Assembly (NCBI GenBank): GCA_028699085.1
Contig: JAQVVF010000002.1
Coordinates: forward strand, 68,557 to 132,556
Length of the DNA: 64,000 bases
Source of the DNA: Patescibacteria group bacterium
GTDB taxonomy: Bacteria; Patescibacteriota; JABMPQ01; JAQVVF01
Direction of reading: 5' to 3'
The notes under the pieces: generated by a model
Database searches by the model: none
What the model was told of the DNA's origin: nothing
Seen by the model: only the letters and a program-made list of their open reading frames with translations
Program-made: the position numbers and the translations under genes
Shown: positions 6,644 through 31,016 of the stretch, one piece after another
How the letters are laid out: each line of letters begins with the position of its first letter
Position numbering within the stretch: position 1 is the first letter of the stretch

Positions 6644-7837
6644 TTATTTAATAATCTTAGTTACAACACCAGCACCAACTGTTTTTCCGCCTTCGCGGAT
6701 AGCAAATTTCATCTTTTCTTCCATAGCAACTGGAGCAACTAATTTAACTTTCATTCCATTTACAGTATCGCCAGGCATAACCATTTCAGTTCCAGAAGGT
6801 AATGTTACTTCACCAGTAACATCAGTAGTTCTGACATAGAATTGTGGTTTATAGCCATTTGTAAATGCTGTATGGCGTCCGCCTTCTTCTTTCTTCAAAA
6901 TATAGGATTCTGCTTCAAATTCAGTATGAGGAGTAATTGAACCTGGTTTTGCTAATACTTGTCCTCTTTCAACATCTTCTTTCTTTGTACCACGTAACAA
7001 GATACCAGCGTTATCACCAGCTCTACCTTCATCCAAAGATTTATTGAACATTTCAATGCCAGTAGCAACAGTTTTTTGAGTAGGTTTTAAACCAACAATT
7101 TCAACAGCATCATTAATTTTAACCATGCCTCTTTCAATTCTACCAGTTACAACAGTTCCACGTCCTTCAATTGAGAATACATCTTCAATAGGCATTAATA
7201 ATGGTTTATCAACATCTCTTTTTGGATCAGGGATATATGAATCTAATTTTTCCAATAATTCTAGAATTGGTTTTCCTGCTTCACCTGATGGATCTTCCAA
7301 AGCTTTTAAAGCTGAACCTTTTACAATTGGAACTTCATCGCCAGGAAAATGATATTTCTTTAATAATTCTCTAACTTCTTCTTCAACCAAAGCAACCATT
7401 TCTGGGTCGTCAACTTGATCAACTTTGTTTAAAAATACAACAATTGATGGAACACCAACTTGATAAGCTAAAAGAATATGCTCTCTTGTTTGAGGCATTG
7501 GTCCATCAGCAGCAGATACAACCAAAATAGCACCATCCATTTGAGCTGCACCAGTAATCATATTCTTAATATAATCAGCGTGTCCTGGGCAATCAACGTG
7601 TGCATAGTGTCTTTTGTCTGTTTCATATTCACAGTGAGCTGTAGCAATAGTAATACCTCTCTCATGCTCTTCTGGAGCTGAGTCAATTTGATCAACTGAT
7701 CTTTCTTGTGCTTTACCTTTTCCAGTAGCATTGATAACTTTCAAAATAGCTGCTGTTAAAGTAGTTTTACCATGATCAACATGGCCAATTGTACCTACGT
7801 TTAAATGTGGTTTTGATCTGTCAAATTTTTCTGCCAT
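6644..7837 (-). CDS. tuf: Elongation factor Tu
   Basis: [18 protein letters not shown] and NKVD GTPase motifs; full-length 397 aa. Confidence 0.99.
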
Positions 7838-7863
7838 TTTTTTATAGTTTAATTATTATTTTA

Positions 7864-7892
7864 ATTATATACGCAAAAAATTATAATGTCAA
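7864..7892 (-). promoter_or_regulatory. Sigma-70-type promoter for tuf
   Basis: On the minus strand, TTGACA (7892-7887), a 17-nt spacer, then TATAAT (7869-7864). Confidence 0.6.
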
Positions 7893-8524: not shown

Positions 8525-10648
8525 TTATTTTCCTTCTTTTTTGCCAGTTCTTCCTTCAACAATCTGCAATTCTACATTCTTTGGAACTTGTTCATAATGA
8601 TCAAATTCCATTACGAAATTTCCACGTCCAGAAGTAATTGATCTGATTGTTGTTACATAGCCAAACATTGATGCAAGAGGAACCATGGCAGAAATAATTT
8701 TTAAGTTATCTCTATCTTCCATTTTTTGAATTTGTGCTCTTTTTGAATTTAAATCTCCAACAATATCACCCATGAACTCAGCTGGCATCATAGCTTCAAT
8801 TTTCATTATTGGTTCAAGTAAAATTGGTTTTGCTCTTCTCTCGCCTTCTTTCATCGCCATAGATGCAGCAATTTTGAAAGCAGCTTCAGAAGAATCAACA
8901 TCATGGAAAGATCCATCATATAATGTTGCTTTGATATCAATTACTGGATAACCAGCAATTACGCCTTCTGTTAATGCCTCTTTACAACCTTTTCCTACAG
9001 CAGGAATAAATTCTTGAGGAATGACACCACCTTTAATTTCATTAATAAATTCAAAACCTTTATTTCTTTCATTTGGTTCTAATCGGAGCCAAACATGTCC
9101 ATACTGACCATGACCACCTGATTGTCTAATATATTTTCCTTCAGCCTCAGCAGTACCCAAAATAGTTTCTTTATAAGCAACTTGTGGATTGCCAATATTA
9201 GCTTCGACTTTAAATTCTCTTTTCATTCTATCGACTAAAACATCCAAGTGTAATTCACCCATACCAGAAATAATTGTCTGCATTGTTTCTTCATCAGTAT
9301 GAACTTTAAAAGTAGGATCTTCTTCCGACAAAGCACGCAAAGCCATCGACATTTTTTCCTGATCAGCTTTTGTTTTTGGTTCAATGGCAATTGAAATAAC
9401 TGGTTCAGGAAAAGTAATTTTTTCCAACATAACAGGATGTTCCATATCACATAAAGTATCGCCAGTAGTAGTACCCTTTAAACCAACAATTGCTGCAATA
9501 TCACCAGCATAGACCTCATCCACTTCCTCTCTTTTATTTGCATGCATACGAATAATTCTACCGACTCTTTCTTTACTATCAGTTGAAGAATTCAAGACAT
9601 AAGATCCAGCTGTTAGAATACCTGAATAAACTCTAAAATAAACTAATTTTCCAACAAACGGATCAGTTGCTACTTTAAAAGCTAAAGCTGTAAATGGTTC
9701 AGTATCACTAACCTTTCTTTCAATTTTTTTTGTCTCGTCTTTTGGATCAAATGCAACTATTGCCGGCACATCTAAGGGGCTAGGCAAACAATCAATTACA
9801 TAATCTAATAACTTTTTGATAATTGCTTTTCTACCATCGCCACCCAAAACTGGAAAAAACTTTCCTGTCAAAGTTGCTTTTCTCAAAGCTGCTCTAATCT
9901 CTTCTTCAGTCAATTCTTGTCCTTCTAAATATTTCTCCATTAATTTATCATCAAATTCAACTATTTTTTCAATCATTTCAGCTCGATATTTTTCACACTT
10001 TTCTTTCATATCAGCAGGAATTTCTTTTGGCTCAGATAATTCCATACCCTCTTCTTTTGCATCGACATTAAAATAAGCCTTCATCATAATAAGATCTACA
10101 GCGCCTTTAATATCTTCGCCAGAACCAATTGGCAACATTACTGGATGAGCATTTTTTGATAATCTGCTGTGAATTGAATCTAAGCTTCTATAAAAATCAC
10201 CGCCAACTAAATTGATCTTATTCAAAAAACAAATTCTTGGAACATGATATTTGTCAGCTTGATGCCAAACAGTTTCCGATTGAGGCTCAACTCCCATTTT
10301 GCCATCAAAAACTACAACAGCTCCATCTAAAACACGCAAGGATCTTTCAACTTCTACTGTAAAATCAACGTGTCCAGGAGTATCAATAATATTAATACGA
10401 TGCTTGTCTTGTTCTTTTTTCCAAATTGGAGACCAAAAACAAGTTGTTGCAGCTGAAGTAATCGTAATTCCTCTTTCTTGTTCTTGTTCCATCCAATCCA
10501 TAGTAGCAGCGCCTTCATGAACTTCACCAATCTTATGTGAAATTCCAGTGAAAAACAAAATACGCTCAGTGATAGTTGTTTTACCAGCATCAATATGAGC
10601 TATAATTCCAATATTTCTTGTTTTTTCAAGTGAGTATTCTCTTGGCAT
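8525..10648 (-). CDS. fusA: Elongation factor G
   Basis: [17 protein letters not shown] and the GELHLDV region; 707 aa. Confidence 0.99.
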
Positions 10649-22565: not shown

Positions 22566-23579
22566 TTATTTTATTTTTAAAATCTTACTCGGCGAATTAA
22601 ACATCGCATTCATCAAAGATTCAGCCACATGAAAAGGCTTGCCTCGATATGGCACTTCATGAATATCAAAACCAGGCATGTAATTTATTTCAATTATTCC
22701 AAATTTTTCAAACTTTTTAATATCAGAAGCAATCAAATCAATCGCGCAAAATCTTAATTGAAAAATTTCCGCAATTTCTACTGCCAACTTTTTATATTTT
22801 GGATTTACTTCACTATCACATTCAAATGATCTTCCTCCAGTACTAACATTAGCATTCTGTCGCAAAAAAACTTTGTCATCTTTCACAACAACATTATCCT
22901 CAGTTAATTTCTTTTCTCTCAAATTTCTTCTGAATTCAAAATCATTTACAATTGGACATAATGGCTGATCTTTGCCTACTCCTGGCTGATCATTATATTC
23001 GTCAATTAATTGTCTGATTGTTTGCTTACCATCTCCATCAACATAGGCAGGCTCACGTCGCAATGATGTTAACACTTTTCCGTCCATCACCAACAATCGA
23101 TAATCACAACCAAAAAGATATTCTTCAATCAGAAAAGAATTCGGTCTGCCTTTTTTACGACGATTATATTTGTAAACCTCTTTAATTGCTCCAATCAAAC
23201 ATTCCTTATCTTTTATTCCAACAGTTACTGCATGTCCTTGACTGCCATCTATTGGTTTGACCACAACAGGAAATTTAATAATTTTCTGATCAACCATCTG
23301 CAAAGTCTTGCGCATATTTTTCAAAATCCAACCCTTTGGATTCGGAATTTTATGTTTATTCAAGATCAATTTTGCCAAAGCTTTATTACCAGAAACAGTG
23401 CAAGAAACATGGCTATTCAAATCAGGCACATGCCATTTTACATAGACATTTTTACCTTTTTTACTGAATATTCTTAAACCTCTAGCTTTATCAACTAGCT
23501 CAACATCAACACCATTTTTCTCGGCTGCCGATAATAACGCTCCCGTGCAATTAAATTTCGAATACGGTATTTTTTCCAT
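22566..23579 (-). CDS. Stand-alone ATP-grasp ligase resembling the cyanophycin synthetase G (ATP-grasp) domain
   Basis: FPVVVKPIDGSQGHAVTVGI, LIEEYLFGCDYRLLVMDGKV, REPAYVDGDGKQTIRQLIDEYN, LRQNANVSTGG and IIEINYMPGFDIH all parallel CphA segments recalled from memory. There is no Mur-ligase-like domain. Confidence 0.75.
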   Translation of the reverse strand: MEKIPYSKFNCTGALLSAAEKNGVDVELVDKARGLRIFSKKGKNVYVKWHVPDLNSHVSCTVSGNKALAKLILNKHKIPNPKGWILKNMRKTLQMVDQKIIKFPVVVKPIDGSQGHAVTVGIKDKECLIGAIKEVYKYNRRKKGRPNSFLIEEYLFGCDYRLLVMDGKVLTSLRREPAYVDGDGKQTIRQLIDEYNDQPGVGKDQPLCPIVNDFEFRRNLREKKLTEDNVVVKDDKVFLRQNANVSTGGRSFECDSEVNPKYKKLAVEIAEIFQLRFCAIDLIASDIKKFEKFGIIEINYMPGFDIHEVPYRGKPFHVAESLMNAMFNSPSKILKIK

Positions 23580-23717
23580 GATTTAAAACTTTCTTTATAT
23601 TTTTATATAAAAAGACACTCTGTCCAGACTGTCTTTTTAGAAAAACTTGATTATTTGATTATTATGATATAATAACAAAAATTAAATAATATGTCAAGTT
23701 TGCAACTTTTTATCACT

Positions 23718-23788
23718 TCGGGGACCCGGGAATCGAACCCGGTCTACATCCACCCCATGGACGCGTACTACCGGTATACTAGTCCCCG
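23718..23788 (-). tRNA. tRNA-Pro (anticodon GGG)
   Basis: Manual cloverleaf: acceptor CGGGGAC/GTCCCCG with discriminator A, anticodon stem CGTCC/GGATG, loop AUGGGGU, T-arm CCGGG-TTCGATT-CCCGG. No encoded CCA. A TTGATT-17-TATAAT promoter lies just upstream. Confidence 0.9.
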
Positions 23789-23828
23789 ACTTAAACATTA
23801 TTATATGCTTTAACAACCGCAAAATCAA

Positions 23829-25906: not shown

Positions 25907-26977
25907 TTAATTTATAGCTATATTCTCAATAATTCTTACAATATTTACCAAATCAGCTATTTTAATTTTCTCTTTTACACTATGACATTTTTCCCGACCA
26001 TAACCAATACTCAAAGACTCAATTCCTTTTTCACAAAAAACATTTGCATCTGTCGCTCCCATTCTCTTTTCATATGCTACTTTCAATCCCGACTTTCTAA
26101 TACCCTTTGAAATCATTTCGACTAAAGCGCTGTCTTTTTTATAATTATATCCAACAACTTCCTGCATTTTTTTCAATTCATATTTAGCATTGAATTTTTT
26201 ACAGCTATTTTTTAATTTTTTTTCTAATATTCCAATTTGTTTTTTAAAAATATTTTTATCAATCGCCCGAATCTCACCAACAAAATTTATTTCATCACAG
26301 ATTACATTTCCGCCTCTGCCACCAGAAACAACACCAATATTTGAAACACAATATTTGCTAATCCTGCCCGGCTTCCACATATTAATAAATTCTGCAAGAC
26401 AATTAATCGAATTCACGCCTTCTTCTGGCGCGCGCGAGTGCGCCATTTTTCCAATTACCTTACCCGAAAAACTCTGAATATATGGAGCGCCACAAGTTAT
26501 AAAGCCACAACGCGATGAACTATCAATAATTACTGCTCTCTTTGATTTCAAATTTTCGAAAACTAAATTCCTTGCTCCAACGCATCCAATTTCCTCCTGC
26601 ACTGTAAAAATCAATTCCAATGGCCGTACATTTTTTTGTTTTCGTAAATTTTTAACTGCCAACAAAATACCTGCAACACCGGCTTTATCATCAGCTCCCA
26701 AAATTGTCCTCCCATCGCTTCTGATAACACTATTTTTAATTATTGGCTTAATATTTTTTCCCGGCGAAACTGTATCCATATGAGCCGACAAAATTATTGG
26801 CTCGCCTCTGCCTTTTGTTTTTGCAATCACATTGCCGATTTTATCTTGCTTTGCTTTAATTTTAATTTTTTTTAAATAATCAATAATAAAATCAGCAACC
26901 TTTTTTTCATTGCCAGTTTCACTATTAATTTTTACTAGTTTCAAAAAAACTCTTACAACTTCAAGATCTCTCTTCAT
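25907..26977 (-). CDS. M20-family metallopeptidase/amidohydrolase (PepT/ArgE/DapE-like)
   Basis: SAHMDTV, LGADDKAGVAGIL and TVQEEIGCVGA metal-ligand motifs. Host-like AT-rich composition and no SD. Confidence 0.8.
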   Translation of the reverse strand: MKRDLEVVRVFLKLVKINSETGNEKKVADFIIDYLKKIKIKAKQDKIGNVIAKTKGRGEPIILSAHMDTVSPGKNIKPIIKNSVIRSDGRTILGADDKAGVAGILLAVKNLRKQKNVRPLELIFTVQEEIGCVGARNLVFENLKSKRAVIIDSSSRCGFITCGAPYIQSFSGKVIGKMAHSRAPEEGVNSINCLAEFINMWKPGRISKYCVSNIGVVSGGRGGNVICDEINFVGEIRAIDKNIFKKQIGILEKKLKNSCKKFNAKYELKKMQEVVGYNYKKDSALVEMISKGIRKSGLKVAYEKRMGATDANVFCEKGIESLSIGYGREKCHSVKEKIKIADLVNIVRIIENIAIN

Positions 26978-27045: not shown

Positions 27046-28767
27046 TTAATCCATAAAAGAACAACTTGTCATTGCCGAATTAGATCGGCCATGAACAATA
27101 TAACCATCAGAGATTGGAATGCAAGTCACTGTATTTCCGCCAAAACTAGAGCTATTTGCATCATTATCAAGCCAATACCAAACACAAATTCTCGTCCGCA
27201 CATTTTCTTTGTCCGCCTTTTTATTAGCTGGATCAAAAATCATCATTTCATCAATTACCATCTCGCAATATTCTTGAGCAATAACAGTTCGTTGTTTTGC
27301 CATTTCCGCAAATGTTTTCACTAGCTTTCTCCATGTACTCCGCATCATCCCCTTACTAATTGCCACAGCATGTCCGCCAGCAGCTTTGTTATCACCACCC
27401 GACAACTTCAGCACTACTTCCGCATCCAATCTTTTTCTAGCCTGTCTAATTTTTACAAACCAATTTTCTCGACCAGACATCACAAAAATTTCTCGCCCAA
27501 CATTTTTAAACATTGTTACCATCTTTGTGGATTCAGGATCAGCCATTTTCCATCCTCTCGTTGACTTTGCCAAAGCCATCAAAGACTTCAAATCTCCCAA
27601 TCCTAAAAATATCTTTTTTCCTAGTTCCAAATCTTTTTTATCTCCCAACTCACGAAAACCAATCAGTTGCAAATTATTATCAAAAGCAAACCAATATTCC
27701 CGAATCTGCATATCTGAAAGTTCCTGCATTGATTCATTAGAATATTCAACGCCCTTCCAAATAAAATTGTTTCCTTTCCAAACAACTGTATAGGCAAAAA
27801 AATTTTTCAATTCAACAAAACCATCGCTTCCCAAAAATTTGATCCATTCTTCATTCAAACGCTCATCAAATAACCATGCCATCAATTCTTTATAATCCAA
27901 AAAAGTCAGCAGATTTGGATGCAGTAAAACTTTGCCATCAAAATAGGCATCAATAATCTTCTTTTCAATATCTGCTGCAAATACTGCCATCCTGTTTTTC
28001 TGTAAATCATTTTTGTCAATTTCAGAATATTCTTTGAAGACTCTTTCCACCAAATCAAGTTTTTTGCCTTTCAAATAAACTCCATCATCTTTGACTTCTG
28101 CCAGAAAAGATATCCCAAACAAAAAAGTCAAACCAAATTCTTTTCCGTATTCTTCAAACAGCTTTGTCAAAGCCTGCTGTTCCGGACCATAACCATCGCG
28201 CCAAGGAGTCAAAAGAATTCCCACATTTCCGCCATTTGGCAACAAATCATGGATAGCTTCGACATACTTTTTGGCAATTGGCTCAAAAAATTTTTTGTCA
28301 GGGAAAAAATTACGCGAAATAATATCAATTACTGCTCCATAACCAGAACCAGTTGCACCCAAAGTAAATTCATTAATCTTCAATCCTTCAGCAGTTCTGA
28401 TTGCATCAATCCGAATTCTTTTTGCCAAAATTACGTTTTTTCTTTCCAATTCTTTTTTCCAAATCTCAATCTGCAATTTTGACCGACCGCAACACAAATC
28501 CTGCCACAGCCAAGAATATTCGCCATTGCTTGATCTCCTCGCCAAATCAACACAACCTCTCAAAAATCTTGGAATCAGATCTTCAAGCCTTTTCAAAGTT
28601 GCAATCTCTCCACAAGTCAAAGCATAAGTTTCCAGCCCAATTCTTGCCGTATAATTTTTTGGCATAGTCCCAATTTTTCCCCAATAAAGACCTTGTTCCA
28701 AATATTCCTTTTCCATTTGCCTACCCAAATCATCATAATCAAACAGCTGTCTGCTCGTTCCCTGCAT
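27046..28767 (-). CDS. Glutathionylspermidine-synthetase-like / circularly permuted ATP-grasp amide ligase (573 aa)
   Basis: RIRIDAIRTAEGLKINEFT parallels R.D......G..KLLE.N. HPNLLTFLDYKELMAWLF parallels P.......NKALL.LLW. VVLKLSGGDNKAAGGHAVAI parallels V.KP...REG..V. VIAQEY parallels the hinge. All parallels are to GSP-synthase family members (E. coli YgiC/Gss) recalled from memory. AGGAGAG lies 6 nt upstream of the ATG. Confidence 0.55.
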   Translation of the reverse strand: MQGTSRQLFDYDDLGRQMEKEYLEQGLYWGKIGTMPKNYTARIGLETYALTCGEIATLKRLEDLIPRFLRGCVDLARRSSNGEYSWLWQDLCCGRSKLQIEIWKKELERKNVILAKRIRIDAIRTAEGLKINEFTLGATGSGYGAVIDIISRNFFPDKKFFEPIAKKYVEAIHDLLPNGGNVGILLTPWRDGYGPEQQALTKLFEEYGKEFGLTFLFGISFLAEVKDDGVYLKGKKLDLVERVFKEYSEIDKNDLQKNRMAVFAADIEKKIIDAYFDGKVLLHPNLLTFLDYKELMAWLFDERLNEEWIKFLGSDGFVELKNFFAYTVVWKGNNFIWKGVEYSNESMQELSDMQIREYWFAFDNNLQLIGFRELGDKKDLELGKKIFLGLGDLKSLMALAKSTRGWKMADPESTKMVTMFKNVGREIFVMSGRENWFVKIRQARKRLDAEVVLKLSGGDNKAAGGHAVAISKGMMRSTWRKLVKTFAEMAKQRTVIAQEYCEMVIDEMMIFDPANKKADKENVRTRICVWYWLDNDANSSSFGGNTVTCIPISDGYIVHGRSNSAMTSCSFMD

Positions 28768-28814
28768 TTTTTTCTCTCCTGCCTACATTTTTGTAGGCCC
28801 TGGTTGTAAAGAAC

Positions 28815-28841
28815 AATCAAAAACCGGCTTTTAGAGCCGGT
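28815..28841 (-). terminator. Rho-independent terminator (module 1), 47 nt upstream of the ligase ATG
   Basis: ACCGGCT (28823-28829) pairs with AGCCGGT (28835-28841). On the minus strand it is followed by TTTTTGATTG. Confidence 0.7.
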
Positions 28842-28868
28842 CTTTGCACAATATAATTTCTTTAAAAA

Positions 28869-28955
28869 TTATCTTATATAATACAAAAATCGACTCATAA
28901 AAATGAAATGATAATGCCATGAATAAAATTTAAATTGTTGACTGATACTTAACAT
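28869..28955 (-). CDS. Candidate 28-aa mini-ORF (module 1)
   Basis: Hand translation gives MLSISQQFKFYSWHYHFIFMSRFLYYIR. It is paralogous to the mini-ORF at 29082..29156. There is no SD, so coding status is unproven. Confidence 0.3.
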   Translation of the reverse strand: MLSISQQFKFYSWHYHFIFMSRFLYYIR

Positions 28956-29028
28956 ATATATACTTAATTGCTTATATTCGTACGATTAGTTGCAGTTGCA
29001 GTTGCATTCGCAATATTAATAAGATGAA

Positions 29029-29057
29029 AACAAAAACTGGCCCAGATATTGAGCCAG
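29029..29057 (-). terminator. Rho-independent terminator (module 2)
   Basis: The minus-strand CTGGCTC-AATATCT-GGGCCAG forms a 7-bp stem with one G-U pair, followed by TTTTTG. Confidence 0.65.
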
Positions 29058-29081
29058 CTTTTTAAAAAAATTATTTAAAAT

Positions 29082-29156
29082 TTATACAATAAAAAGTCGA
29101 CTCAATAATCTTGAATGCCAGTAATGTGTATAAAATTGTCGGCTAATATTTTTCAT
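29082..29156 (-). CDS. Candidate 24-aa mini-ORF (module 2)
   Basis: Hand translation gives MKNISRQFYTHYWHSRLLSRLFIV. The ATG lies 8 nt after a consensus -10, so the transcript would be near-leaderless. Coding status is unproven. Confidence 0.3.
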   Translation of the reverse strand: MKNISRQFYTHYWHSRLLSRLFIV

Positions 29157-29164
29157 AATAATAT

Positions 29165-29192
29165 ATTATATAACACCTACATCTTTTGTCAA
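29165..29192 (-). promoter_or_regulatory. Consensus sigma-70-type promoter driving module 2
   Basis: On the minus strand, TTGACA (29192-29187), a 16-nt spacer, then TATAAT (29170-29165). Confidence 0.6.
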
Positions 29193-29210
29193 TATAACTT
29201 ATCAACAGGC

Positions 29211-29693
29211 CTATTCTGTTCCTTTTTCTTTTTCAGAATATAAATAATCATAATCTATTTTTTTGTATTTAAATAATTCATCATTATTAAAAAATCTGAA
29301 TACTTCTTTCTCCGTATTTTCAGGACTATCGGAAGCATGAACAATGTTGCTTGAACCAGATATACATAAATCGCCTCTGATACTTCCAGCATCAGCTTCA
29401 TAGCCCTTTGTTGGTCCAACTAGCAAGCGAACAGCTGATATCGCATTATAACCTTCCAAAACTGCAGCAACACAAGGCGCACTTTTCATAAAACCCTTTA
29501 AGTCATTAAAAAAAGGCTTGTCCTTATGATGAGCATAATGTTCATCTAATAATACATCGCTTAATTGCATCATTTTCAATGCTGTAATTTTCAATCCTTT
29601 TTTTTCAAAACGAGAAATCACTTCACCTAAAAGATTTCTTTGCAAACCATCTGGTTTTATGATAACTAATGTTCTTTCAATTTTGTCTGGCAT
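29211..29693 (-). CDS. ndk: Nucleoside diphosphate kinase (with a short C-terminal extension)
   Basis: ERTLVIIKPDGLQRNLLGEVISRFEKKGLKI...NIVHASDS (active-site His region). Confidence 0.93.
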   Translation of the reverse strand: MPDKIERTLVIIKPDGLQRNLLGEVISRFEKKGLKITALKMMQLSDVLLDEHYAHHKDKPFFNDLKGFMKSAPCVAAVLEGYNAISAVRLLVGPTKGYEADAGSIRGDLCISGSSNIVHASDSPENTEKEVFRFFNNDELFKYKKIDYDYLYSEKEKGTE

Positions 29694-29711
29694 AAAATTG
29701 TTTTATTTAAT

Positions 29712-31016
29712 TTAACCTTTAATTTTGTCCATTAATTTTCTTAACTTTTTCAAAATCCTGAACTGTCCATCTTCCATAAAAAAATCTTTCAAATTTATTT
29801 CTTTATTCAATCCTCTTTTTATTCTCTTTCTCCAAGAAGACTGCTCATGTGATTCTATTGTTTCAAGATACAGATTTAATAATTTCTGAGTTTGATTTTG
29901 GATCGAAAATAATTTTGCTAGTTCTAAAGACTTTGTCGACATTTTAGCACGTAAATCTGGATTTCGCAACAACTCTAAAACTTTTTCAGAATATAAATCT
30001 GAATCATCATTTGGAATTTCAAAACCATTCTCTAAATCCGCCACAACTGAAGTCAAACCTTCATCCTTCAACATTACAATTGGCAAACCAGAAGCTGCTG
30101 CTTCCAACAAAACCAAACTTTGAGTATCAGTCTTCGATGCAAAAACAAAAAATTCTGCATCTGCAAAACATTTTGGCACTTCATCTCGATTCGCAAATCC
30201 GCCAAAAATAACTCTGTCTTGCAATTTCATTTTTTCAAATTCATTTTTTAAATCATCTAAACTTGGTCCAGAACCGATTATCGCCATCACGCAATTTTCA
30301 TCTTCTTTAGCTACTTTTTCAAACATCTCCGCTAAAAACATCGGATTCTTGGGAAGAGCCACTCTGCCCAAATACATTATTATTTTCTTGTCAGCTGGAA
30401 TATTAAACTTTGATCTTAAATATTTTTTTTCAACATTACTAAATTTATCCAACTCAATTCCAGTCTGAATAACTGAAATATCATTTTTTACTCCATATTC
30501 TTGCAACATTTTTTTAACTTTTTCCGAAGGCGAAATTAAAGCATCGCATCTTTGGCTATAAAAAACTGAGATATCTTTTGCCAAGCTCATCACTGCTTTA
30601 TCCATCCTATACCAATTTTTAAATAATGAATGACCTGTATATTTTTCATAAAGCGTATGATAAGTATGGACAACTGGAATATTATAAAATAATGCTACAA
30701 TACTTGCATACATTCCCATATAAAATGGCGTATGAGAATGAACTATGTCAATTTTAAATTTATAAAAATCATGAAAAATCGGAGGTAGATTTGGAAGCGT
30801 CATTGTGAATTCCGAAAATACATCTTGCTTCAATGATTCAATACGATAAACTCTTGGACCATCTTTTGGAACATTTCCATTTTCATCTTTTAATAATGGC
30901 GCAAAAATAAAAACCTGATGACCTTGTTTTTCCAGTTCATCTTTGAATAAATCTATTGAGTTCGCAACACCAGAGACATAAGGATGATAGGTGTCTGTAA
31001 AAAATGCTATATTCAC
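29712..31016 (-). CDS. Family 4 (GT-B) glycosyltransferase; GTG start
   Basis: NIAFFTDTYHPYVSGV N-terminus and a C-terminal E..GL...EA...G.P motif (LLEAAASGLPIV). The start codon is GTG at 31016-31014. Confidence 0.85.
   Translation of the reverse strand: MNIAFFTDTYHPYVSGVANSIDLFKDELEKQGHQVFIFAPLLKDENGNVPKDGPRVYRIESLKQDVFSEFTMTLPNLPPIFHDFYKFKIDIVHSHTPFYMGMYASIVALFYNIPVVHTYHTLYEKYTGHSLFKNWYRMDKAVMSLAKDISVFYSQRCDALISPSEKVKKMLQEYGVKNDISVIQTGIELDKFSNVEKKYLRSKFNIPADKKIIMYLGRVALPKNPMFLAEMFEKVAKEDENCVMAIIGSGPSLDDLKNEFEKMKLQDRVIFGGFANRDEVPKCFADAEFFVFASKTDTQSLVLLEAAASGLPIVMLKDEGLTSVVADLENGFEIPNDDSDLYSEKVLELLRNPDLRAKMSTKSLELAKLFSIQNQTQKLLNLYLETIESHEQSSWRKRIKRGLNKEINLKDFFMEDGQFRILKKLRKLMDKIKG

Follow-up and report, generated by a model that had tools for sequence, protein, structure and literature searches.

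Two probable leader-peptide attenuators in series before the operon of an orphan ATP-grasp ligase and an M20 peptidase in a Patescibacteria group bacterium

In the window, the 64,000-nucleotide (nt) stretch of Patescibacteria group bacterium DNA analysed here, the spacer between ndk and the gene of an orphan ATP-grasp-like amide ligase probably contains two complete ribosome-mediated (leader-peptide) transcription attenuators in series. The spacer holds a distal and a proximal module, approximately 67% identical over the module, each with a short open reading frame (ORF) and an intrinsic terminator, and the elements follow one another, all on the minus strand, in the order promoter, distal module, spacer, proximal module, hairpin plus Shine-Dalgarno (SD) sequence, ligase and M20 peptidase (Table 1). 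An earlier description made from the letters of the DNA without database searches (the sequence-only reading) had placed the element at 28815-29192, an interval that does span the whole of it. The features listed there are all present on the minus strand: the consensus promoter, the ATG 8 nt past the -10 box, the two mini-ORFs of 24 and 28 codons with their terminators, the 7/24 and 12/28 residues that are Phe, Tyr, Trp or His (F/Y/W/H), the synonymous differences between the two ORFs at codons 4-5, the internal 6-nt indel and the hexamer repeat. Of the three interpretations that it offered (tandem leader-peptide attenuators, small peptide substrates or products of the ligase/peptidase pair, and small RNAs), the attenuators are now well supported by antiterminators that share the 5' arm of the terminator in every copy and by a frame that is open in 11/11 copies, while the peptide substrates are weakened by variable tails, few acidic residues and rare codons.

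One line of support is the set of alternative RNA structures that each module can form. All counts refer to 11 module copies from six loci, the compared loci being the contigs that encode each ligase homologue, and ten of the copies make up the alignment A3. Every module has three mutually exclusive helices, 1:2, 2:3 (the antiterminator) and 3:4 (the terminator). The antiterminators, for which the sequence-only reading had suggested a search by folding, were found in this way in 11/11 copies, with energies of -14 to -22 kcal/mol, similar to the terminators' range of -13 to -19.5 kcal/mol (11/11 copies). When the antiterminator segment is folded as it would exist before region 4 is transcribed, it gives z = -3.2 to -6.3 in 11/11 copies, and no more than 1 of 200 dinucleotide shuffles folds as well. 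As for the terminators themselves, the scan detected two such sites, whereas shuffled sequence gave 0.3 +/- 0.6. The region 2 consensus, GAGUYGRYUUUU, which reads as 'S-R' or 'S-W' codons, can pair with the 5' arm of the terminator in every copy.

Conservation of the pairing is visible in A3, where helix 1:2 (columns 13-19 with 62-68) is paired in 94% of the cells, helix 2:3 (columns 59-72 with 114-127) in 91% and helix 3:4 (columns 114-127 with 133-146) in 94%, compared with 25-58% in slid controls (30-58% for helix 2:3). RNAalifold, unaided and with region 4 withheld, returned exactly helix 1:2, and with region 1 also withheld it returned helix 2:3. Two changes illustrate how the pairing is maintained: in region 2 of L006 the CGA/CGG codon is replaced by UGG, a radical change (Arg to Trp) that keeps the pairing with regions 1 and 3, and in L011 all three helices are built from unrelated sequence. 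Proximal region 1, where 6/7 positions pair in the window, is AGTCGAC or ACCGAC in orthologues and pairs fully. Codon choice points in the same direction, since only 9% of the Arg codons in the window are CGA, against 61% AGA, and the conserved Arg codons of regions 1 and 2 are CGA/CGG; the use of these rare codons exactly where the two regions need G+C argues for a constraint at the RNA level in those places.

The coding signal of the mini-ORFs complements that of the helices. The ATG-initiated frame is open in 11/11 copies, and frames 2 and 3 hold one to four stops over the same span in every copy; frameshifts or stops in homologous mini-ORFs, which according to the sequence-only reading would have pointed to an RNA or a relic, occur in none of the 11. 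Inside the conserved part of the ORF the two types of module differ by a single 6-nt indel, and the indels outside it are not multiples of three. No SD sequence precedes the mini-ORFs in any copy. Among the 47 window ORFs of at least 150 amino acids (aa), however, an SD-like motif is found upstream of six, most starting after AT-rich tracts and the ligase being one of the few with a strong SD; the missing SD is therefore normal for this genome, and it was rejected as an argument against translation of the mini-ORFs, given that 41/47 long genes lack it as well. It can be inferred that the mini-ORFs are translated and that ribosomes pause at their Trp, His, Tyr and Phe codons.

Much of the encoded peptide, on the other hand, seems to matter little as such. 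The C-termini differ (IV, IA, IR, RL or LY), and a 1-nt indel separates the distal tails from the proximal and L006 tails; these variable last codons, together with the indel, indicate that selection does not act on the C-terminal part at the peptide level. The stop codon nonetheless always comes soon after region 2. Asp and Glu are absent from 9/10 main-clade peptides, the L011 peptide shares with the main clade only M1, W13 and a nearby His, and no clear excess of third-position substitutions was detected among distal orthologues. Beyond what RNA pairing needs, only M1, W13 and a nearby His/Tyr are conserved, and no known arrest motif was recognised. To judge from these substitutions, no strong purifying selection acts on the peptide beyond the control block and the helices.

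What does remain fixed is the position of the putative control codons. In 11/11 copies the single Trp codon occupies codon position 13 (nt 37-39). It lies within runs that read HYWH, YYWH or HFWY in distal modules, WHYHF or WYYHF in proximal modules and WNHF in L011. Every copy has Trp13 and one or more His in the stall window, the remaining positions are taken by Tyr and Phe, and orthologues exchange His, Tyr and Phe freely. There are three to five consecutive F/Y/W/H codons around Trp13 in 9/11 copies, the runs of L006_d and L011 being shorter and interrupted, and in the window the proximal block has five (codons 13-17), with its end 11 nt from region 2. In 11/11 copies the distance from the beginning of the run's final codon to the first base of region 2 that pairs is 11-16 nt. 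The stop codon lies 17-29 nt past the start of region 2, which implies that a terminating ribosome covers that region. F/Y/W/H residues make up 29-43% of the main-clade peptides and 13% of the L011 peptide, compared with 10% of the proteome. The sequence-only reading had cautioned that aromatic richness might be an artefact of AT bias, a justified caveat, as is discussed below, although AT bias does not account for the invariant Trp codon 13 or for the position of the run. Pairing of UGGCAU (Trp-His) was also considered as the cause of the conservation of Trp13 and rejected: the distal CUGGC can pair with region 4, the proximal copies allow only 4 base pairs (bp), and the context in L011 is different.

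With a leader ORF, an intrinsic terminator, an antiterminator, a 1:2 helix and the corresponding placement of control codons and stop, each module has the parts of an attenuator, and a mechanism can be proposed. In the absence of a ribosome, regions 1 and 2 would pair, leaving region 3 free for region 4, and the terminator would form. If translation proceeded smoothly to the stop, the ribosome would cover region 2 and the terminator would form as well. A pause in the F/Y/W/H run around Trp13, by contrast, would mask region 1 and expose region 2, allowing the 2:3 antiterminator to form and the polymerase to read through; with the run's final codon in the A site, a ribosome would extend almost to region 2, stopping a few nt short and leaving it uncovered, and would mask region 1. 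Together the modules would control the passage of transcription from a single strong promoter into the operon of the ligase and the M20 enzyme, and placing them in series would multiply the termination decisions, which should keep the OFF state tight and make the response steeper.

The promoter from which this transcription is expected to start is of the sigma-70 type, matches the consensus at 12/12 positions and begins 18 nt 3' of ndk (29693-29211, minus strand, PF00334). No other good promoter match occurs on the minus strand in 28500-29500. Neither the promoter scan of this interval nor inspection found a convincing independent promoter for the proximal module or the ligase, in agreement with what had been said of the ligase from the sequence alone. 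TTGACA and the 16-nt spacer are kept in 6/6 loci. The gap between the -10 box and the ATG is 6-8 nt in 4/6 loci, the window among them, from which a leaderless or near-leaderless distal ORF is predicted, with the transcript starting at the distal AUG or within a few nt of it.

The arrangement is conserved with the ligase. Tandem modules behind the same promoter precede the ligase in L001 (80% protein identity), L005 (68%), L009 (61%; the same sequence as L101 in GTDB) and L006/L007 (52%), where the spacer before the ligase measures 440-610 nt, and L011, which encodes a 37% homologue, has the same promoter and one module of unrelated sequence but of the same design. The alignment of homologous spacers proposed with the sequence-only reading thus reveals tandem modules in four other genomes and a single module in a fifth. 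The leaders of L002-L004, L007, L008 and L101 are identical to those analysed and add no variation. The upstream neighbours differ between loci, which implies that the modules are linked to the ligase rather than to ndk. Distal copies are 82-95% identical to one another, proximal copies 79-89%, and distal and proximal copies 63-73%; since each type is orthologous among itself, the duplication is old and the tandem state has been maintained. Over their 3' halves the two L006 copies share 90% identity, suggestive of homogenisation.

The clade that carries tandem modules is very small. A scan of 185,579 GTDB species genomes with the pattern of the leader core gave approximately 100 matches, of which only L026 (from the L006 genome) and L101 are real, both upstream of the ligase, and no other regulon members were found in those genomes. 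The leader motif had six matches in JGI metagenomes, all of them random GC-rich coding sequence. The element appears, on the strength of these scans, to be private to the ligase operon.

Table 1. Positions in the window of the promoter, the two modules, the adjoining spacer features and the genes downstream
Feature	Position	Strand	Details
Promoter	29165..29192	-	-35 TTGACA 29192-29187, 16-nt spacer, -10 TATAAT 29170-29165
Distal leader ORF	29082..29156	-	24 codons + stop, MKNISRQFYTHYWHSRLLSRLFIV; ATG at 29156, 8 nt past -10
Distal region 1	29138..29144	-	AGCCGAC, codons 5-6; pairs with region 2 as anti-antiterminator; one C.A mismatch in the window
Distal control block	29115..29135	-	Codons 8-14, F Y T H Y W H; Trp codon 29120-29118; ends 13 nt before region 2
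Distal region 2	29090..29107	-	TATTGAGTCGACTTTTTA; antiterminator 5' arm, inside the ORF; inverted repeat
Distal region 3	29047..29064	-	TAAAAAGCTGGCTCAATA; common to antiterminator and terminator
Distal intrinsic terminator	29026..29062	-	13-bp stem (29062-29032), 5-nt loop, T tract; -17.0 kcal/mol
Inter-module spacer	28975..29017	-	GCGAAT/ACGAAT motifs and (GCAACT)x3
Proximal leader ORF	28869..28955	-	28 codons + stop, MLSISQQFKFYSWHYHFIFMSRFLYYIR
Proximal region 1	28937..28943	-	AGTCAAC; 6/7 positions pair in the window
Proximal control block	28905..28934	-	Codons 8-17, F K F Y S W H Y H F; Trp codon 28919-28917
Proximal region 2	28884..28896	-	GAGTCGATTTTTG
Proximal region 3 and intrinsic terminator	28815..28846	-	Region 3 CAAAGACCGGCTC 28846-28834; 12-bp stem (28846-28818), T tract; -14.7 kcal/mol
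Small GC hairpin and ligase SD	28774..28798	-	GCCTACA/TGTAGGC, then strong SD AGGAGAG
Regulated gene 1 (putative)	27046..28767	-	573-aa orphan ATP-grasp-like amide ligase; glutathione/glutathionylspermidine-synthetase-like fold
Regulated gene 2 (putative)	25907..26977	-	M20 metallopeptidase or amidohydrolase, PepT-like; TIGR01883, 244 bits, slightly below cutoff

Several observations weigh against the reading of the spacer as a pair of attenuators. Translation and read-through are deduced from sequence. The covariation is thin, with two double-changed pairs per helix and effectively six independent lineages, a number that accounts for the scarcity of double-sided changes. Both 1:2 helices of the window carry a mismatch, and helix 1:2 appears in 7/11 single-sequence minimum-free-energy folds and is absent from the other four. 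The ATG lies 19 nt from the -10 box in L006 and 11 nt in L011, and not every locus would have a leaderless start. F/Y/W/H codons abound in frame 3 of this DNA too, which means that the aromatic richness is partly a product of AT bias. The control codons are mixed (one Trp and one to three His, plus Tyr and Phe), while classical attenuators have a run for one amino acid, and the regulated genes are not genes of amino-acid biosynthesis. No aromatic or His biosynthesis gene and no tRNA-synthetase gene lies downstream, so that the cognate operon typical of the classical subclass is missing; a cognate operon, however, defines the classical amino-acid subclass and not the mechanism. Finally, a Trp-rich ligase (2.6% Trp, against 0.74%) is awkward for induction by Trp starvation.

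The nature of the signal is accordingly less certain than the anatomy. The candidate that is tentatively favoured is a shortage of charged tRNA (Trp, His, aromatics) that induces a peptidase-containing operon in an auxotroph. Both enzymes are poor in His, a weak fit with the sensing of starvation. The same anatomy could instead use the nascent peptide as the sensor, in a ligand-dependent arrest caused by a metabolite, such as the ligase's substrate or product, or by a ribosome-targeting antibiotic; the small molecule would act at the exit tunnel or the peptidyl-transferase centre, and a stall near codons 13-16 would expose region 2 and induce the operon. TnaC (Trp), which also has an invariant Trp, and SpeFL (ornithine) are known arrest peptides. 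This explanation, the main alternative although an unlikely one, would suit the fixed distance of Trp13 from the AUG in 11/11 copies, even in L011 with its otherwise unrelated RNA and peptide, and the tolerance of neighbouring positions only for His/Tyr/Phe swaps, which suits a constraint at the peptide level. Substrate induction would suit a ligase and hydrolase pair, the paradox of a Trp-rich enzyme induced by Trp starvation would be avoided, and upstream ORFs (uORFs) that sense drugs or metabolites are documented (PMC12121999). The nascent chain at the stall would be only 12-16 residues long, however, the L011 peptide has no motif in common with the main clade except M1, W13 and a His close by, RNA pairing accounts for the remaining conserved residues (R6, Q7, S-R), and the sequence suggests no ligand. 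A more specific version is doubtful: that the leader peptides are metabolite-sensing arrest peptides in which Trp13, the His/Tyr/Phe residues and the exit tunnel form a pocket for the substrate or product of the ligase, the peptides being perhaps also carboxylate substrates of the ligase. Under it, two nascent-chain sensors in series would make the operon inducible by substrate.

Two further explanations dispense with the ribosome as the sensor or make the peptides the product of interest, and both are improbable. According to the first, which is given the lower probability, the leader would be an RNA-only switch with incidental ORFs, in which helix 1:2 closes an aptamer for a ligand, a protein or a tRNA and binding favours the terminator. 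A P1-like helix 1:2 that shares its 3' strand with the antiterminator is indeed the standard layout of an OFF riboswitch, CGACAAUUU and UGGYAU are conserved at the nucleotide level, and the distal CUGGC (Trp-His codons) could pair with region 4. Nevertheless, the 42-48 nt between regions 1 and 2 are variable, contain a 6-nt indel and have no conserved internal helix, and nothing in such a switch explains an ATG fixed 12 nt before region 1, an exclusive open frame in 11/11 copies and a stop just past region 2; moreover, the ATG coincides with the predicted transcription start. Nor is there an Rfam match: within 27500-30500, searched with an E-value threshold, only sub-threshold matches driven by the terminators were obtained (for example L20_leader, 25.8 bits against a gathering threshold of 58.7), and the five homologous loci gave none at the gathering threshold. 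The second of these explanations takes the ORFs to encode functional small peptides, either precursors like those of peptides that ribosomes make and that are modified after translation (RiPPs) or carboxylate substrates of the ATP-grasp ligase, with trimming by the M20 enzyme and with leaky terminators that set the ratio of peptide to enzyme. Such a role would be compatible with attenuation, the peptides are cationic as well as aromatic, tandem paralogous short ORFs beside a ligase and a peptidase resemble clusters of precursors and enzymes, and the structural relatives YgiC and YjfC are, by the description available, peptidyl-polyamine synthetases (cited in PMC12568646). Yet the C-termini are variable, with the last codons frame-shifted by the 1-nt indel between module types, 9/10 main-clade peptides have no Asp/Glu and no core is conserved, the L011 peptide is unrelated in spite of a homologous ligase, the conserved codons sit in RNA helices and use rare codons, and the conserved antiterminator that overlaps the end of each ORF is not required. 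The graspetide/microviridin type of RiPP was rejected on account of the lack of acidic residues in 9/10 peptides, the variable C-termini and an enzyme fold like that of glutathione/glutathionylspermidine synthetases. Attenuation by a translating ribosome remains the preferred reading of both modules.

The ligase gene that the attenuators would regulate is itself uncommon. Searches of Pfam, NCBIfam and PDB sequences with the 573-aa protein gave no match, and one distant relative has a weak PF03738 match. The protein is also extremely rare, with six homologues among 5.8 billion clusters and only two 50%-identity clusters among 1.8 billion representatives. Cp1B, an enzyme that couples a carboxylic acid with an L-amino acid, is the highest-scoring match of its AlphaFold model (16.4), which is of medium confidence (predicted local distance difference test, pLDDT, 71); the other matches are YgiC (14.6), GspS (13.7) and glutathione and homoglutathione synthetases (12-13.5). 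At fold level the protein agrees with the three-domain ATP-grasp type, which is marked by Gly-rich and Ala-rich loops, and the family has an invariant SGGDNxAAGxH motif. According to the model, the protein is an ATP-grasp amide ligase, the term 'ligase' being correct at the level of the fold only.

With regard to composition, the ligase contains 15 Trp (2.6%, against 0.74% in the window proteome), many of them invariant in the family, and four His (0.7%, against 1.5%), and the M20 protein is likewise poor in His (0.84%). The M20 gene lies 3' of the ligase in L001, L005, L006 and L101, the four loci that extend past the ligase; the L009 contig ends approximately 330 nt past the ligase stop, with only a 60-residue gene fragment. 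Approximately 2.3 kb downstream of the M20 gene and on the same strand, the window encodes a second ATP-grasp protein, RimK-like (PF08443, E = 5e-14), at 22566-23579 (minus strand), and between the two are three small ORFs without a Pfam match and a tRNA-Pro (23717-23789).

Other neighbours are specific to certain loci. At the loci of the distant (37%) ligase homologues, L011 (476-556) and L010 (1-63), a hydrophobic ORF of 26 aa, MKKFVILVVLAVILGIVEHLAQRKKS, has its own SD and overlaps the ligase start in an ATGA, an arrangement that suggests a translationally coupled small membrane partner absent from the clade of the window. Two genes upstream of the L001 leader is a TrpR-family gene (PF01371, 2730-3053), which could be a coincidence or a link to tryptophan; the window has no equivalent of it between ndk and the leader. 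In L006 an ornithine carbamoyltransferase gene follows the M20 gene and an arginyl-tRNA synthetase gene is nearby (6983-7876, 8844-9722), neither being common to the other loci.

The sequences between and after the modules have features of their own. The inter-module spacer is not needed for the attenuator model. Its hexamer repeat, (GCAACT)x3 at 29005-28988 on the minus strand, which reads AGTTGC on the plus strand, lies among other spacer motifs and is not conserved. These motifs (YGCGAAT, ACGAATA, GTGAAT or CACAAAT) recur in post-terminator spacers of the window (29017-28975, minus strand) and of L005 (645-700 and 1010-1050), and the same types are found in L006 (3700-3755 and 3885-3975) and L009 (1855-1890), L001 being without them; AATATTGCGAATGC is identical in the spacers of the window and L006, although the ligases are only 52% identical. 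YGCGAATR occurs three times in the window against 5.7 expected and, not being enriched, is not a genome-wide repeat. The YGCGAAT-type motifs could be a protein-binding site or the remnant of a repeat.

Between the proximal terminator, which ends approximately 50 nt before the ligase ATG at 28767, and the ligase, the stretch TTTTTGATTGTTCTTTACAAC (28811-28824, minus strand), just past the terminator, is almost identical in the window, L001, L005 and L009; it is more conserved than is expected of a spacer and has no promoter match. A GC-rich hairpin stands directly 5' of the ligase SD in the window (28798-28781) and in L005 (approximately 1208-1240, GTCCACC...GGTGGAC), two hairpins precede the SD in L009 (approximately 2058-2125) and none does in L001. 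A possible role of the hairpin is to stabilise the 5' end of read-through mRNA after processing; alternatively, it could be a small repeat that was inserted.

If the preferred reading is correct, its significance goes beyond a single operon. Patescibacteria are tiny-genome, auxotrophic episymbionts whose nutrient sensing is little known, and it would follow that they use the translating ribosome as a sensor. The design would be very compact, with a leaderless start, no SD and an ORF of 24-28 codons, and the serial duplication would provide a natural test of how tandem attenuators sharpen a response. The Trp, His and aromatic codons would, in addition, offer a regulatory clue to the physiological role of the orphan ligase and M20 operon. 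Should the pocket formed by an arrest peptide prove to be the sensor instead, the leaders would represent a new family of arrest peptides and a direct handle on the chemistry of the ligase and the M20 enzyme.

Leader-peptide attenuation is a textbook mechanism in Proteobacteria and Actinobacteria, and mixed-codon (multivalent) leaders such as ilvL are part of it. A literature search found no description of the mechanism in Patescibacteria. The classical attenuators (E. coli trpL, hisL, pheL and ilvL; C. glutamicum trpL and aroR) likewise have a short leader ORF, exclusive 1:2, 2:3 and 3:4 helices and an intrinsic terminator, and in them too the control codons free region 2 when the ribosome stalls and the stop masks it when translation terminates. 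The modules described here differ in that two of them are placed in series, with the distal ORF at the 5' end of the transcript, in the mixed Trp/His/Tyr/Phe run with a single invariant Trp, and in their context, since the targets are an orphan ATP-grasp ligase and an M20 enzyme in an auxotrophic Patescibacterium most of whose genes lack an SD. Serial units of sensor and terminator are also known from tandem riboswitches and T-boxes, from which a steeper, more digital response is expected; those units sense through aptamers or tRNA, whereas here the sensor would be the translating ribosome. A multivalent leader is found in aroR, with Phe-Tyr-Phe (PMC11802643).

Among systems with more than one short ORF, the mgtCBR leader of Salmonella resembles the present one in having two of them (mgtM and mgtP) and alternative stem-loops that control transcription (PMC3641672). 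Its ORFs, however, are unrelated, respond to different signals (ATP and proline-tRNA) and are not accompanied by two canonical intrinsic terminators, while here they are paralogous duplicates, each with its own terminator, that probably respond to one signal. The leaderless polycysteine short-ORF attenuators of mycobacteria (bioRxiv 10.1101/834739) have in common with the predicted distal transcript a short ORF that is leaderless and opens the operon transcript, and the remodelling of RNA by codon pausing, but they control translation by unmasking a ribosome-binding site and use homopolymeric Cys codons, in contrast to intrinsic termination and a mixed aromatic/His run. In the arrest uORFs (tnaC, speFL, erm leaders and, in PMC12121999, toiL) a stalled ribosome on a short uORF likewise prevents premature termination or remodels the leader; in the present leaders there is no known arrest motif and the nascent chain at the stall would be very short. 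Taken together, these comparisons place the proposed mechanism with the known ribosome-mediated transcription attenuation, in which the tandem layout, the start at the 5' end, the mixed codon run and the targets are what is unusual.

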